A stretch of DNA of 64,000 bases. Origin: an uncultured Bacteroidales bacterium. Its GTDB lineage: Bacteria; Bacteroidota; Bacteroidia; Bacteroidales; UBA932. How positions within the stretch are numbered: position 1 is the stretch's first letter; the number at the start of each line of letters is the position of its first letter. The notes under the pieces were generated by a model, which did no database searches, was not told the origin of the DNA, and saw only the letters and a program-made list of their open reading frames with translations. Positions 18,627-48,653 of this stretch are shown piece by piece. A program made the position numbers and the translations under genes. Location of the stretch: positions 1,003,652 to 1,067,651 of the forward strand of contig OZ006987.1 in NCBI GenBank assembly GCA_963931055.1, in the 5' to 3' direction.

Positions 18627-18751
18627 GTCAGCCTGAGGAGATACCGCAACCCTGGAAAACTTACAAACGGCAGTATCTTTTATGACCCAAAAGAGGGTGA
18701 ATTCTAAGTTAAAACCAAATTTATTTTAACTTTTTTCGTTGTCTACGATTT

Positions 18752-26639: not shown

Positions 26640-26855
26640 GAGTCCGGAGCCTAAACACCCGTAGGCCGCTGATCCGTGTCGCAAGGCAGGTCTTCTGACT
26701 CGTTCCGTTCCGGACGCCTTCCCGAATCCCGGCAGACGGTCTATCTCCCAGGGCATCAGTGGCAAAAGTGCCGGAACATCATTGGAACTCACAGCAGCGG
26801 GAACTGTCCGGGACTCTCACCCGGTTCCCTTTTAATCCTATACGGAACCGTTGCG
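26640..26855 (-). promoter_or_regulatory. cobalamin (B12) riboswitch
   Basis: The minus strand reads ...AAAAGGGAACCGGGTGAGAGTCCCGGACAGTTCCCGCTGCTGTGAG...GCCACTG...GGGAAGGCG...AGTCAGAAGACCTGCC (B12 box at 26685-26700). All conserved blocks of the cobalamin aptamer appear in the right order. Confidence 0.9.
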
Positions 26856-26859
26856 CCCG

Positions 26860-26867
26860 CAAATATA
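26860..26867 (-). promoter_or_regulatory. candidate -7 promoter box (TATATTTG) for the riboswitch-btuB transcript
   Basis: TAnnTTTG match on the minus strand a few nt upstream of the aptamer 5' end. Confidence 0.4.
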
Positions 26868-27014
26868 TGCATTTTTTCAATATCCATACAATATCCGTCT
26901 GCAACCACTCCGGCGGGACGGCAGTATTGATTGTAGCGGGGCAAGCTTGCAAGTCCGTATATCGCTGACTGTCTTTTAGTTAGTTTAGCAACATATCCTT
27001 TTCCCATAACTCAC

Positions 27015-44446: not shown

Positions 44447-45637
44447 ATGTACAAAGATTTTCAAGCCTATCTTCAGAACGAGCTGAACAGCATCAAGGAA
44501 GCAGGACTGTACAAGGAAGAGCGCGTAATCGTGTCTCCCCAGGGTCCTGAGATTACCCTTCAGGACGGCACCAAAGCCCTGAACTTCTGTGCCAACAACT
44601 ACCTCGGACTTGCCGACAGCAAGGAACTCGTAAAGGCCGCCAAGGATGCCATGGACACCCACGGCTACGGTATGGCCAGCGTGCGTTTCATCTGCGGTAC
44701 CGGCGACCTGCAGAAGACCCTCGAGGCCAAGATCGCAGAGTTCTTCGGCACTGAGGACACCATCCTCTACGCTGCATGCTTCGACGCCAACGGTGGTGTG
44801 TTCGAGCCCCTTCTGAACGAGCAGGACGCCATCATATCCGATTCCCTCAACCACGCCTCCATCATCGACGGAGTGCGTCTGTGCAAGGCCAAGAGATACC
44901 GTTACGCCAACGCCGACATGGCCGAGTTGGAGAAATGCCTTCAGGAGGCCCAGACCCAGCGTCACCGCATCATCGTCACCGACGGTGTATTCTCAATGGA
45001 CGGCAACGTATGCCCTCTGGACAAGATCCACGCCCTCGCCGAGAAGTACAACGCCATGGTCATGGTCGATGAGTCACACTCAGCCGGCGTCGTAGGCAAG
45101 ACCGGACGCGGCGTCACAGAGCGCTACAATCTCCGTGGCCAGATTGAGATCATCACAGGCACCCTCGGAAAGGCATTCGGCGGCTCCGTCGGCGGATTCA
45201 CCACCGGTAAGAAGGAGATCATCGCCATGCTGCGCCAGAGATCAAGGCCTTATCTGTTCTCCAACTCCATACCTCCCATGATTGCAGCCGCAGGTATCCG
45301 CATGTTCGACATGATGAAGGAGTCCAACGAGCTTCAGGACCGTCTGCACGAGAACACCGACTACTTCATCAGCAGGATGAAGGCCGCCGGCTTCGACATC
45401 AAGCCCACCGAGTCAGCTATCTGCGCCGTCATGCTGTATGACGCCAAGCTGTCCCAGGAGATGGCAGCCCGCCTGCAGGACGAGGGCATCTTCGTAACCG
45501 GCTTCTACTATCCTGTAGTGCCTAAAGACCAGGCCCGTATCCGTGTACAGGTATCTGCCGGCCACAAGAAGGAGCACCTTGACAGATGCGTCGCAGCCTT
45601 CACCAAGATCGGCAAGGAACTCGGCGTCCTGAAATAG
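44447..45637 (+). CDS. kbl: glycine C-acetyltransferase (2-amino-3-ketobutyrate CoA ligase)
   Basis: PLP class II aminotransferase fold. NNYLGL, DESHSAG and the lysine block TGTLGKAFGG. 396 aa. Confidence 0.85.
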   Translation: MYKDFQAYLQNELNSIKEAGLYKEERVIVSPQGPEITLQDGTKALNFCANNYLGLADSKELVKAAKDAMDTHGYGMASVRFICGTGDLQKTLEAKIAEFFGTEDTILYAACFDANGGVFEPLLNEQDAIISDSLNHASIIDGVRLCKAKRYRYANADMAELEKCLQEAQTQRHRIIVTDGVFSMDGNVCPLDKIHALAEKYNAMVMVDESHSAGVVGKTGRGVTERYNLRGQIEIITGTLGKAFGGSVGGFTTGKKEIIAMLRQRSRPYLFSNSIPPMIAAAGIRMFDMMKESNELQDRLHENTDYFISRMKAAGFDIKPTESAICAVMLYDAKLSQEMAARLQDEGIFVTGFYYPVVPKDQARIRVQVSAGHKKEHLDRCVAAFTKIGKELGVLK

Positions 45638-45668: not shown

Positions 45669-45704
45669 AAAAGACCGCGTCCTTTCCCGGACCCGGTCTT
45701 TTTC
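45669..45704 (+). terminator. rho-independent terminator after kbl
   Basis: AAAAGACCG...CGGTCTTTT stem with an inner GTCC/GGAC pairing, followed by a T run. Confidence 0.6.
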
Positions 45705-45834
45705 ATTTCCCATCCATTAGATTGCCGTTCCCGTTTTCTTCATATTTTCCGTCCTTTATCTGATTCCCGCCCAATTTCCTCCCTAGCCTTCATCCCCCAT
45801 CCCCTCAAAGTTTCCATATTCTACCCTCTGCCAT

Positions 45835-46181
45835 CGGAGAGTGTACCATTCCTCCACATTATCCGTACACCCTCGCCCATAGATTCTATACGCACCACAC
45901 TCATAAGCACTTCTTGGCGGGCATATCCTACTCCTCCCCCACGAGAGTGTACCATTTTTCCATGCTTCACGTACACTCTCCATCTTGCCAGCCATCCACA
46001 AGCCACTACAAACGGCACAGCATCCATTTCCCAAATGAGAGTGTACCCTTTTCCCACCCTCGTGGTACACTCTCGTGGAGAGGGGAGATGTAGATGCCGA
46101 CGAGAATGGGTTGCGGAGGCGACAAGACAGGATAGCCTCTACGAGGGTGTACCGATATTTCGGGGAAATGGTACACTCCCG
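45835..46181. repeat. cluster of four REP-like palindromic units (each two inverted ~12 nt arms CG(R)GAGTGTACC around a 16-17 nt variable spacer)
   Basis: The units lie at 45837-45874, 45942-45980, 46037-46075 and 46142-46181, spaced about 94-106 bp apart. Arms were read directly, for example GAGAGTGTACC...GGTACACTCTC at 46037/46064. Confidence 0.8.
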
Positions 46182-46206
46182 CATCATCAGTCTCCACAAA
46201 ACAAAA

Positions 46207-47133
46207 CTAAGAATACGGCAAACACCTCTCCAACTGCCCCTGCGATACCCGTAACGCATCTGCAAGGCTCTGACGCACATCATCCACCTCGGAATGGGAA
46301 AGCTGCACATAACTAACTTTCCCATAACGCGGTACACACTGATGGTCTATAATATCGCACAACTCAATATCCGAAACACGTTTCTCGTTGACCCAATGCT
46401 GATTCTGCTTCAAAATCAGCTGCACCTCACTATCCGGCAGAAAAGCCTCTACAGTTCCCAACGTAACCGGCGGCAGACCATCGTCATCTTCCTCCTGCTC
46501 CCGCATCCATCGCTCATAGTCATTACGGTTAAGACCGAACAGAAAAGCGCGGTACGATCCGAAATAACCCTCTACCAAAACACTGTCTACCACATCGTCA
46601 TATGAGATCATGCCGGTTGACCTCAAAACATCAACGTCATCGGGCAGATGATTTTTTATCCGGATAATATCCGACTTTTTCCTTCGAAACACAGCTTCCG
46701 TTACGGGTGAAAAGGATTGTATTTTATTCTTAAAATACTGATTGACGGAAGAGAACGGATAGGAGTAAAGGTTTGCGCACACTTCGTGATGGTAGGGATT
46801 GCGTATGACATAACTTATCGCGGCTGCAATATGACGCCGTCCCTCAAGCTTACTGCAGAAGAAAGCCTTGTCCCCCAATGCTCCCTTGCGCTTGTAACGG
46901 TGATTGAACATCTGTGTATACGAAGTTCTTATCCGCATTACCAGATTGGACGGATCAGCACATACGGCAATCATGTGTACGTGCGTAGACATTATGGCAT
47001 GAGCCAACAGACTGCTGCCAGTCTTGAACACAGCCTGTGCAATGCAGTTGAACATCATGCAGTAATCCTTATAACTTCGGCAAAGTACCTCATTGTGAGA
47101 GGTAAAACAGATATGATACAATCTCCTGCCCAT
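46207..47133 (-). CDS. HUH/Y1 transposase-like protein (RAYT-like) with an unrecognised ~170 aa C-terminal extension
   Basis: HUH motif in AIMSTHVHMIAV and the tyrosine motif AAISYVIRNPYHHEV (Y-x3-NP as in IS200/RAYT enzymes). ATG at 47133 is preceded by AAGGAGGAG. The track start at 47175 is a TTG. Confidence 0.7.
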   Translation of the reverse strand: MGRRLYHICFTSHNEVLCRSYKDYCMMFNCIAQAVFKTGSSLLAHAIMSTHVHMIAVCADPSNLVMRIRTSYTQMFNHRYKRKGALGDKAFFCSKLEGRRHIAAAISYVIRNPYHHEVCANLYSYPFSSVNQYFKNKIQSFSPVTEAVFRRKKSDIIRIKNHLPDDVDVLRSTGMISYDDVVDSVLVEGYFGSYRAFLFGLNRNDYERWMREQEEDDDGLPPVTLGTVEAFLPDSEVQLILKQNQHWVNEKRVSDIELCDIIDHQCVPRYGKVSYVQLSHSEVDDVRQSLADALRVSQGQLERCLPYS

Positions 47134-47230
47134 GTCTCTCTCCTCCTTGTAATCATTTAATGAAAGTCTTTGCAAATATACTAAGAAGCCGAGAGGAGAA
47201 CAAATTTATTTGCTCTACGAAGTTTCAGTT

Positions 47231-47355
47231 CGGAGAGTGTACCTTCTTTTCTGAAAAATAGTACACACTCCTAGTAAAAACATTCCTATTTGGGGCAAAT
47301 ACCGCAAAATCCCTCGAAGAGTGTACTACTATCAAGCATCTGTGGTACACTCTCG
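47231..47355. repeat. two further REP-like palindromic units on the 5' side of the RAYT-like gene
   Basis: 47231-47271 reads CGGAGAGTGTACC...AGTACACACTCC. 47315-47355 reads CGAAGAGTGTAC...GGTACACTCTCG. Confidence 0.75.
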
Positions 47356-47471: not shown

Positions 47472-48653
47472 ATGAGAACAAAATCGCACTTACTGAAAGT
47501 ACTTGCCGCAGGAGCGGCCGCCGTCATCGCAACCGCATGCGGACAGAAAAATGACGGAGAACTCATCAGCGTCAATTTCAACCGGGTCAGCCAGGCCCCG
47601 GCAATGAATATCTCCGAACTGGCAGGAGAGCCTGAGTTCATAGCCCTGGACAGCAGGGTCGAGGCATTCGCCACCGGCTACACCTACGCATTCAGCGACC
47701 ACTACATCTGCATCGGCGCATCCATGCGCGGCCCGGCCAAGCTCTACGACCGCGCGACCGGCAAATTCCTCCGTGACGTAGGAGCCATCGGACGCGGCCC
47801 GGGCGAATACCTCAACACCTACGGCTCTCCGAGGATAGACGAGGAGGACGGCACCGTCTGGCTCCTGCCCTGGCAGACCAAGACTCTCCTGGGCTTCGAC
47901 ATCGCTACCGGCAAGTTCAAAAAGGAGGTTCCTCTGAAATACGGCGTGCCCAAAGGACAGTTCCAGGTAGACTCGAAGGCCGGCACAGTAACCGTCGCCG
48001 CTCTGCCGTTCAGGGATATGGTACCGGTGATTGCATGGCAGCAGGACATGCAGGGCAATGTACTCTGGGAGATACCTGCCGGCCACCTGACCATGACACC
48101 CGAATTCAGCAATGAGATAGAGAGCAGCGGCAACGTGGAAGAAATCTTTGACCTGTCGCTCATAACCTGGGGCGGCGGACAGGACTCACTGTATGTAATC
48201 AATAAGGGTGCCGTCAATCCGGTCTACACTATAGACTTCCACACCAAGGAGGTGGAATCCGAGGACTACAACCTCAACGTCAACGAGGATGCCCCCATCC
48301 ACTCCTATATCATGCTGCCCGGACACTTCATCACCAGCGTAAGCTACCCCGTACAGACTGAATGGGGATTCAGCACCGGCAAGCCCGAATACGTCATCAC
48401 CGACCGGCGCACGGGAGAAAGCATCAGAACGACATTCTACAACGACTACCTGGCCAAAGAAACCGACTACGTATCCTTCACCGGCGGCTACTGGTACACT
48501 GTCCTCGACCCGGAGACCTTTATCGAAGTTGCGGAGAACGCTCTGAAAGAAGGCAATCTCTCCGAGGAGAACAAGGCCCGCATCCAGGAAATCCTCGACG
48601 GCCTCACCCCCGAGAGCAACAACATCCTGATGCTCGCACCTATAAAAAAATAA
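47472..48653 (+). CDS. 6-bladed beta-propeller lipoprotein (BF3164-like family)
   Basis: Lipobox VIATAC. The GRGPGEY motif (DVGAIGRGPGEYLN) and the length are typical of this Bacteroidales lipoprotein family, as I recall it. Confidence 0.55.
   Translation: MRTKSHLLKVLAAGAAAVIATACGQKNDGELISVNFNRVSQAPAMNISELAGEPEFIALDSRVEAFATGYTYAFSDHYICIGASMRGPAKLYDRATGKFLRDVGAIGRGPGEYLNTYGSPRIDEEDGTVWLLPWQTKTLLGFDIATGKFKKEVPLKYGVPKGQFQVDSKAGTVTVAALPFRDMVPVIAWQQDMQGNVLWEIPAGHLTMTPEFSNEIESSGNVEEIFDLSLITWGGGQDSLYVINKGAVNPVYTIDFHTKEVESEDYNLNVNEDAPIHSYIMLPGHFITSVSYPVQTEWGFSTGKPEYVITDRRTGESIRTTFYNDYLAKETDYVSFTGGYWYTVLDPETFIEVAENALKEGNLSEENKARIQEILDGLTPESNNILMLAPIKK

Follow-up and report, generated by a model that had tools for sequence, protein, structure and literature searches.

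Does a long HUH-type enzyme gene in an uncultured Bacteroidales bacterium form, together with the palindromes that flank it, a module of the kind known from the REP-associated tyrosine transposases (RAYTs; REP, repetitive extragenic palindrome)? RAYTs are the textbook domesticated transposases of bacteria, living with their own miniature repeats, and to our knowledge work on them has been carried out almost wholly in Proteobacteria. The 64-kb stretch of DNA analyzed here (the window) is part of contig CALVDI010000003.1 of the metagenome-assembled genome (MAG) BRZ_BB__bin35, an assignment that agrees with the Bacteroidales host proposed in a first-pass annotation of this DNA. On its minus strand the window encodes a 308-amino-acid (aa) two-domain protein with a Y1 HUH core, the gene for which is surrounded by six palindromic units. 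Our analysis indicates that gene and palindromes probably constitute a REPtron-like module, that is, a chromosomal, vertically inherited, single-copy class-2 Y1 HUH enzyme accompanied by the palindromes it recognizes, which are arrayed on both sides of it.

A pattern search for GTGTAC-N16-20-GTACAC returned six matches in the window, each of the form GTGTAC-N18-GTACAC, compared with 0.01 expected from shuffled sequences. All six flank the HUH gene, four on its 3' side and two on its 5' side, as the first-pass annotation had described. The arm has the sequence GAGAGTGTACC (also given as CGRGAGTGTACC), and nine of the ten GAGTGTAC octamers in the window fall at this locus, against an expectation of 1.4. 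Using a covariance model of the six units with filters off, we recovered from the whole window only these six, at 46-54 bits; the next match reaches 14 bits and corresponds to an ordinary terminator at 18750. In each of the units the two arms start 26 nt apart. Between pairs of units, identity is 0.93 for the arms as against 0.39 for the spacers and 0.35 for flanks and linkers, and a comparison of three sister genomes, which share the neighboring genes and a 99% identical protein, revealed variation at 1 of 144 arm sites as opposed to 37 of 675 other noncoding sites (Fisher p = 0.008). The arms are clearly under constraint and the sequence between them has decayed. Tandem Repeats Finder misses the arrays of the window because only the arms survive.

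The spacer had been called non-conserved, which holds for most of its length but not for its arm-proximal part, where the motif ATTTTYCC is kept and gives each unit a polarity. Numbered from the unit furthest 3' of the gene (Table 1), u1, u2, u3 and u5 point rightward, while u4, u6 and the gene itself point leftward; this orientation leans partly on a model derived from units oriented by hand, with which a separate repeat comparison agrees. The arrangement yields two inverted doublets, u3/u4 and u5/u6, with 56 and 44 nt between their units. Complementarity extends beyond the arms: u4 and u1 are 84% complementary along a 37-nt stretch that takes in the spacer, and u6 is complementary to u2 over 38 nt. 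Successive units are spaced with periods of 84, 94 and 106 bp.

The same association recurs across the protein family. In a genome scan limited to one genome per species, 97 loci were returned and 80 were kept and analyzed, all of them from Bacteroidales/Bacteroidia that live in the guts of birds, mice, humans and ruminants. In 78 of these 80 loci the HUH gene occurs together with a repeated palindrome family, on both sides in most. Seventy loci have downstream units, which in 62 of them begin 3-201 bp past the stop codon. On the upstream side the units are found within 20-300 bp or else are separated from the gene by one or two unrelated housekeeping genes; roughly half of the loci have their upstream array 0.7-2.8 kb off, past other genes. 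Although the gene family is the same, the arms are not. They read GGGGAAAGTG in loci L005 and L081, GAAGGTGCCG in L018 and L088, CGCAGGTGAACC in L021, CCACAACGCCCAC in L022, AAAGTGCACC in L091 and GGTATGTACA in L026 and L030; in a rumen clade GCCGCGTTGACA occurs along with one- or two-base variants in which both arms change together. Arm similarity follows protein identity (Spearman 0.51, with none of 999 permutations as high in a Mantel test), and arm 7-mers are shared by all pairs above 80% protein identity and by 5% of pairs below 35%. Co-inheritance by itself must account for part of this correlation. Paralogs within one genome carry different arms.

Two further properties of the arrays bear on how the units may be read. 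Spacers measure anywhere from 9 to 34 nt depending on the clade, with a fixed length inside each clade, a pattern that favors recognition as a hairpin, since a hairpin binder would tolerate such variation more easily than a duplex site for a dimer. In addition, the arrays are dynamic in copy number: the tandem copies of L021 share 99% identity and those of L081 90%, and sister species hold one, two or three units within a single trpS-cutC spacer. L044 (1440-4540) has an unusually large array, with 37 palindromic pairings in the 7 kb round the gene, mostly at 41-42 bp spacing.

The first-pass annotation had recognized an HUH motif and a tyrosine helix, and both are present: H51-V52-H53 aligns with HmH, and Y108-V-I-R-N112-P113 with YiyiNP, of Escherichia coli TnpA-REP (PDB 4er8). 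In a family alignment of 44 sequences reaching down to 29% identity, H51, H53, Y108 and N112 are invariant, which argues that catalysis has been retained; the HUH motif and the catalytic tyrosine are both intact. Sequence models score the domain weakly. The Pfam Y1_Tnp model (PF01797) matches it at E = 4.9e-4, but at 20.6 bits the match falls below the gathering threshold of 23 bits. The same model matched all 18 family members tested (best E = 6.5e-7). The NCBIfam equivalog REP_Tyr_transpos (NF047646) gives 34.7 bits (E = 1.4e-8) against a cut-off of 80 bits, and a profile search of PDB sequences reached 4er8 at E = 0.2. Despite these scores, the modeled structure is clear in indicating an N-terminal fold of the IS200/TnpA-REP type. 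Residues 1-100 are predicted by AlphaFold2 with a predicted local distance difference test (pLDDT) of 83-96, and the 30 best Foldseek matches in the PDB are all TnpA of IS200, IS608 or ISDra2, or TnpA-REP 4er8 (E from 3e-5 to 4e-4, probability 1.0, template-modeling score ~0.6 on the target).

Within this fold, the motifs stand nearer to RAYTs than to IS200. A published classification of TnpA-Y1 proteins assigns the signature Y---NP to class 2 and Y---Q to class 1 (PMC6006769), and the Y-VIR-NP of our protein is of the former, RAYT-type, class. Moreover, the YPFSS that follows the tyrosine motif aligns with WPFST of 4er8, and the NCBIfam RAYT score exceeds that of Pfam Y1_Tnp. One hallmark is missing: a conserved W[QE] in beta4 has been tied to recognition of the GTAG foot in subclasses with typical REPs, and it is absent from this family, which reads F-F or F-Y there (...AFFCS...).

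The remainder of the protein is what sets it apart in size. The first-pass annotation had noted a length of about 310 aa, roughly twice that of a minimal Y1 transposase, with a last ~170 aa resembling nothing familiar, and this description stands. Residues 136-308 are as conserved as the core and include the invariant positions E188, R203, Q213, E229, D255, C259, D263, Q300, R303, C304 and L305. AlphaFold2 is confident for residues 251-308 (pLDDT 78-95), where the last ~50 residues are predicted to form a helical bundle, and gives low values for 114-145, 194-205 and 244-251. No match to residues 136-308 was found in Pfam (18 members, E <= 5), NCBIfam, PADLOC or PHROGs, nor when PDB sequences were searched with phmmer and with profiles. 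Residues 151-308, modeled on their own with AlphaFold2, likewise had no fold match in the PDB by Foldseek (best E = 5). We considered a DnaA-domain-IV-like helix-turn-helix (HTH), as found in subclass 2.1 of the Y1 enzymes; it is unsupported, with no Pfam HTH or PDB fold match. By its motifs the enzyme appears to represent an unannotated class-2 Y1 subfamily with a new C-terminal domain, closest to the class-2 TnpA-Y1 proteins.

This subfamily is large. A profile search of 1.84 billion representatives identified at least 159 clusters, defined at 50% identity, at E < 1e-30, and 1696 at E < 1e-10. Full-length members are nearly all 300-325 aa long. Those that bear a database name are entered as 'hypothetical protein [Bacteroidales bacterium]', with one fragment listed in RefSeq as a 'transposase'. 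Carriers from gut and rumen include Muribaculaceae, Alistipes-like and Cryptobacteroides lineages, among others. Among the 80 kept loci the genome of the window contributes one. Eleven genomes have two or three paralogs, which are 35-60% identical in the ten with both copies intact. Orthologs across species are 85-98% identical and syntenic, for example in the order trpS-cutC-HUH-lipoprotein, and the family is absent from PLSDB plasmids and IMG/VR viral contigs. Given these divergent paralogs, syntenic orthologs and the absence from plasmids and viral contigs, the gene behaves as a resident, domesticated gene and not as an active insertion sequence (IS), in line with the earlier view that it is no ordinary multicopy IS200.

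A conserved partner gene was sought and rejected, as the genes between the upstream array and the HUH gene differ by clade: cutC, an EEP nuclease, MATE plus MBL, a methyltransferase plus DUF262, a nitroreductase or hflX. In the rumen loci L047, L052, L058 and L075 (~170-2630) it is a DNA methyltransferase-like and a DUF262-like gene that separate the upstream doublet from the HUH gene. In L089 (10128-14996), a distant member of the family (P0022, 34% identity) has a type III-A (Csm) CRISPR-Cas operon ~5 kb away and a WYL-domain gene at 2 kb, a proximity that is probably a coincidence.

If the module works as its relatives do, its operation can be sketched as follows. In single-stranded DNA (ssDNA), exposed at the replication fork or in transcription, the units would fold as hairpins, as in the IS608 and TnpA-REP systems. 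By homology with IS608 TnpA and the TnpA-REP enzymes of E. coli, Stenotrophomonas and Marinomonas, the N-terminal domain would bind stem and foot, and Y108, with a metal held by H51 and H53, would cut and rejoin the strand beside the hairpin. Cutting and rejoining would create, homogenize or maintain the local arrays, and in some lineages the enzyme would seed copies into neighboring intergenic regions. We speculate that the C-terminal ~170 residues, with their helical bundle, add DNA binding or oligomerization; they may stand in for the GTAG-foot recognition that the family lacks.

A number of observations weigh against this reading. The correlation between arm and protein could stem from co-inheritance of the locus alone, and tandem copy number can change by slippage without any enzyme. 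A foot of the type GTAG, GTGG or CGTC, or their complements, is not apparent, as no single motif stands beside more than 15 of 416 distinct units on either flank; of the six units of the window, just u3 and u4 are followed by GT[AG]G. Mismatches in the stems show no strand bias (132 G·T versus 122 A·C), in a test confounded by the mixed orientations of the units. The hairpins themselves are weak, with loops of 16-18 nt and ssDNA folding energies of -4 to -10 kcal/mol, and that of u1 is no better than shuffles (z = -1.8). Finally, in the DNA covered the repeats appear confined to the locus. Neither the pattern search nor the covariance model found a unit away from the gene in the 64-kb window, and none was found in the 15-21 kb contexts of five relatives (L081, L085, L088, L089 and L091); in all six cases every unit is within ~650 bp of the gene. 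From zero units in the remaining ~62 kb we infer fewer than ~120 copies genome-wide at the 95% level, if copies are placed at random in a genome assumed to measure ~2.5 Mb. The first-pass proposal of a RAYT/REP-type module is accordingly upheld in part: lineage-specific palindromes beside nearly every family member speak for it, while the RAYT and Pfam cut-offs, W[QE] and the foot do not, and no dispersal was seen in the 64 kb and the five contexts of relatives.

Concentration near the gene has a precedent among the known systems. REPs are concentrated beside tnpA-REP in the Marinomonas REPtrons Ma and Mb (PMC8266576), and very abundant repeats are tied to RAYT groups 2 and 3 only (PMC5581495). 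Extra palindrome clusters do occur 1-3 kb away, in the next intergenic regions, in L010, L064, L071 and L073. We also scanned metagenomes for AGAGTGTAC N17-19 GTACACTCT, which returned more than 120 stretches; the 80 that were fetched proved to be unrelated terminator-like hairpins or another palindrome family, and held no HUH gene. The other family, caAGAGTGTACA-N17-19-TGTACACTCTtg, recurs within single human-gut assemblies on several large contigs that are separate from one another (L120, L133 and L155 from ODUK01000075/9/12; L145 and L153 from OBVF01000002/42) and has the look of a dispersed REP-like repeat. The fetched flanks of its loci contain no homolog of the HUH protein.

The alternative that fares best is that the units are sites in duplex DNA, akin to operators or iterons, where the protein, acting through its C-terminal helical domain and as a dimer or oligomer, would coat helically phased arrays around its gene, either to regulate itself or to form a nucleoprotein structure, with strand cleavage absent or secondary. 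We regard this as unlikely, though with an appreciable chance of being correct. Several features that count against a REPtron-like module count in its favor. Spacings of units are quantized. Alternating arms of the rumen clade follow one another at 41-42 bp; a period of 104-107 bp is seen in at least eight clades whose arms and linkers are unrelated; L008-L013 have 117-118 bp, and L006/L007 have 127-128 bp. Many such periods, the 84 and 94 bp of the window among them, fall near multiples of 10.5 bp, pointing to duplex recognition. The arms of L006-L013 are each perfect palindromes of 15-17 bp in their own right (CACCTTCsGAAGGTG, ACTCCTTCGGAAGGAGT; e.g., L013 1549-1838), such that an arm can pair with either neighbor or serve as a duplex dimer site, for which palindromes of this length are typical. 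The invariable 26-bp distance between arms in the window, the weak hairpins, the position of u5 next to a candidate promoter and the conserved helical bundle fit the same picture. Set against it are the invariance of the HUH, tyrosine and N112 residues, the lack of resemblance between the C-terminal region and any known HTH or DNA-binding family or fold, and a half-site spacing that varies from clade to clade as described above. Furthermore, four units 3' of the gene would be unexpected for an autoregulatory operator, and the extra neighboring clusters in L010, L073 and L071 resemble spread, not regulation.

There is a small chance that the family is not a REP mobilizer at all but a Bacteroidales-specific two-domain HUH system in which the C-terminal domain and the Y1 core together maintain locus-confined, phased arrays (~42, 84 and 105 bp). 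If so, it would be a self-contained device for DNA processing or chromosome structuring, whose output could be, for example, a nucleoprotein array, programmed nicking or the production of ssDNA.

That the palindromes are generic, RNA-level elements (terminators, mRNA stabilizers or small RNAs), co-inherited with the gene and without any link to its protein, seems very unlikely to us. Most units do lie directly 3' of the stop codon, classical REPs can act as RNA elements (PMC3733652), and the correlation of arm with protein could be phylogenetic inertia. However, units flank the gene on either side, occur in both orientations, carry no T-tract and have no match in Rfam. Unrelated arms beside a single gene family, differing from paralog to paralog in one genome, are moreover not what chance co-inheritance of generic terminators predicts. 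Least probable of all is an ordinary, active IS of the IS200/IS605 type with the units as subterminal hairpins: the hairpins-gene-hairpins layout, the rumen-clade doublets that have the same orientation upstream and downstream, like left and right ends, and the RefSeq label noted above would suit it, but there are no near-identical copies, the same locus is occupied in different species, plasmids and viral contigs lack the gene, each side bears several hairpins in variable number, the tyrosine motif is that of class 2, and housekeeping genes intervene between upstream array and gene in about half of the loci.

How, then, does the proposed REPtron-like module compare with systems already described? 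It shares with the REPtrons of E. coli (yafM/rayT, 4er8), Pseudomonas, Stenotrophomonas and Marinomonas the Y1 HUH fold, the HUH and tyrosine residues, Y---NP and [WY]PFS[ST]; one or few divergent, syntenic chromosomal copies per genome; and palindromes that bracket the gene, some as inverted doublets, each lineage or paralog having its own. It differs in that those enzymes measure ~150-180 aa and lack the extra conserved ~170-aa domain, read D/N-H-x-H where this family reads S/T-H-V-H, and possess the W[QE] that is absent here, and the NCBIfam RAYT score of our protein stays at less than half of its cut-off. Its units also depart from theirs in their 16-18 nt loops (9-34 nt family-wide), the missing GTAG foot and their organization in tandem arrays with periods of ~84-106 bp.

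Two published groups come closer in particular respects. Subclass 2.6, or RAYT group 5, comprises low-copy class-2 enzymes of Bacteroidetes associated with 'atypical secondary structures' instead of GTAG REPs; its signature is NH[LIV]H / WQ / YIH[QN]NP and its mean length 179 aa (PMC6006769; PMC5581495). The present family has (S/T)HVH / FF / YV[IVLM]RNP and 304-320 aa, a separation that is drawn from the published signature only. Copies of the subclass 2.6 structures are reported elsewhere in the genome, whereas none was seen in the 64-kb window. Subclasses 2.1 (TIRYT) and 2.3, in turn, resemble our family in being long (means of 238 and 325 aa) with a conserved C-terminal extension past the Y1 core, and the terminal inverted repeat (TIR) families are of low or moderate abundance, sometimes self-complementary and clustered. 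The C-terminus of subclass 2.1, however, matches Bac_DnaA_C, HTH_23 or HTH_28, in contrast to the absence of any Pfam HTH here; subclass 2.3 has a 55-aa insertion in the core; both are reported without the REP-like flanks that we observe; and the TIR motif GGGGWSAS does not occur in the units of the window. The IS200/IS605 elements IS608 and ISDra2 have the same catalytic fold, a gene bordered by hairpins and a known recognition of ssDNA, but their Y---Q, many identical copies, defined ends and horizontal spread were not seen here.

The general idea is therefore known, since Bacteroidetes RAYT-like enzymes with atypical flanking structures (2.6) and others with long C-terminal extensions (2.1, 2.3) were described by Quentin et al. 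2018 (PMC6006769). We did not find this family, or its combination of features, described in the RAYT/TnpA-Y1 papers that we consulted, and to that extent the first-pass judgment that the combination is uncharacterized holds. Di Nocera et al. 2013 foresaw many further REPtron- and TIRtron-like entities, and the module described here is one of them.

Table 1. Features of the HUH locus and other annotated elements, in window coordinates
Feature	Position	Strand	Basis or remark
308-aa two-domain Y1 HUH protein gene	46207..47133	-	ORF (open reading frame) and translation; conserved over its full length in 44 homologs (29-64% identity)
N-terminal Y1 HUH (IS200/RAYT-type) catalytic domain, residues 1-135	46729..47133	-	Foldseek; weak Pfam/NCBIfam scores; AlphaFold2
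HUH motif H51-V52-H53	46975..46983	-	Read from sequence; alignment with 4er8
Catalytic-tyrosine helix Y108-V-I-R-N112-P113	46795..46812	-	Read from sequence; alignment with 4er8
Family-specific C-terminal region, residues 136-308	46210..46728	-	Conservation in family alignment; no domain match
Predicted helical bundle, last ~50 residues	46222-46371	-	AlphaFold2, confident
Unit u1, furthest 3' of gene, CGGAGAGTGTACC N16 (C)GTACACCCTCG	45836..45875	+	Covariance model, 49.9 bits on +
Unit u2	45942..45981	+	51.3 bits on +; ssDNA fold -7.3 kcal/mol, z = -5.9
Unit u3, inverted doublet with u4	46036..46075	+	51.4 bits on +; ssDNA fold -9.9 kcal/mol
Unit u4, inverted relative to u1-u3, 26 nt past stop codon	46142..46181	-	54 bits on -, 28.6 on +
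Unit u5, ~100 nt upstream of ATG	47232..47271	+	50.7 bits on +
Unit u6, inverted doublet with u5	47316..47355	-	46.3 bits on -, 21.9 on +
Candidate Bacteroides-type -7 promoter box TAtaTTTG	47173..47180	-	Read from sequence; 40 nt upstream of ATG, between u5 and gene
kbl-type aminotransferase gene	44447-45637	+	Neighbor of HUH gene
kbl terminator hairpin	45669-45702		
C-rich tract	45675-45900	+	GC skew to -0.6
Lipoprotein gene	47472-48653	+	Neighbor of HUH gene
Cobalamin riboswitch	26668-26868	-	Rfam RF00174, 95.8 bits

The gene call follows the homologs. The protein begins MGRRLYHICF from the ATG at 47133, the alignment giving no support to the longer TTG start at 47175 chosen by the ORF tool, and the stop codon occupies 46207-46209. 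Upstream of the ATG lies a box that we list as a candidate promoter because it fits TAnnTTTG, which we take to be the Bacteroides promoter consensus. As the first-pass annotation had stated, the locus contains neither a tnpB nor a second conserved ORF. A 184-aa ORF that runs over the array (45783-46337, minus strand) was rejected as coding, given the frameshifting indels of 7 and 22 nt in sister genomes.

The pyrimidine-rich plus strand reported earlier near 45700-46030 is real, in the form of a strongly C-rich tract. This tract sits between the kbl terminator hairpin and u1, carries the 7- and 22-nt indels in the sister genomes and bears a resemblance to the T/C-rich spacer motif of the units; it may be a decayed array. 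The cobalamin riboswitch elsewhere in the window is unrelated to the HUH module.

Taken at face value, these results bring to light a large protein family of gut and rumen Bacteroidales, labeled 'hypothetical protein', with a conserved extra domain that matches no known fold, and an annotation correction is available for hundreds of MAGs. The pairing of one enzyme with one palindrome, including two or three orthogonal pairs within single genomes, provides natural specificity variants for studying how Y1 enzymes read hairpins without a GTAG guide. The locus-confined, copy-variable arrays also raise the question of what selection keeps a RAYT-like gene in these bacteria when its repeats have not spread.

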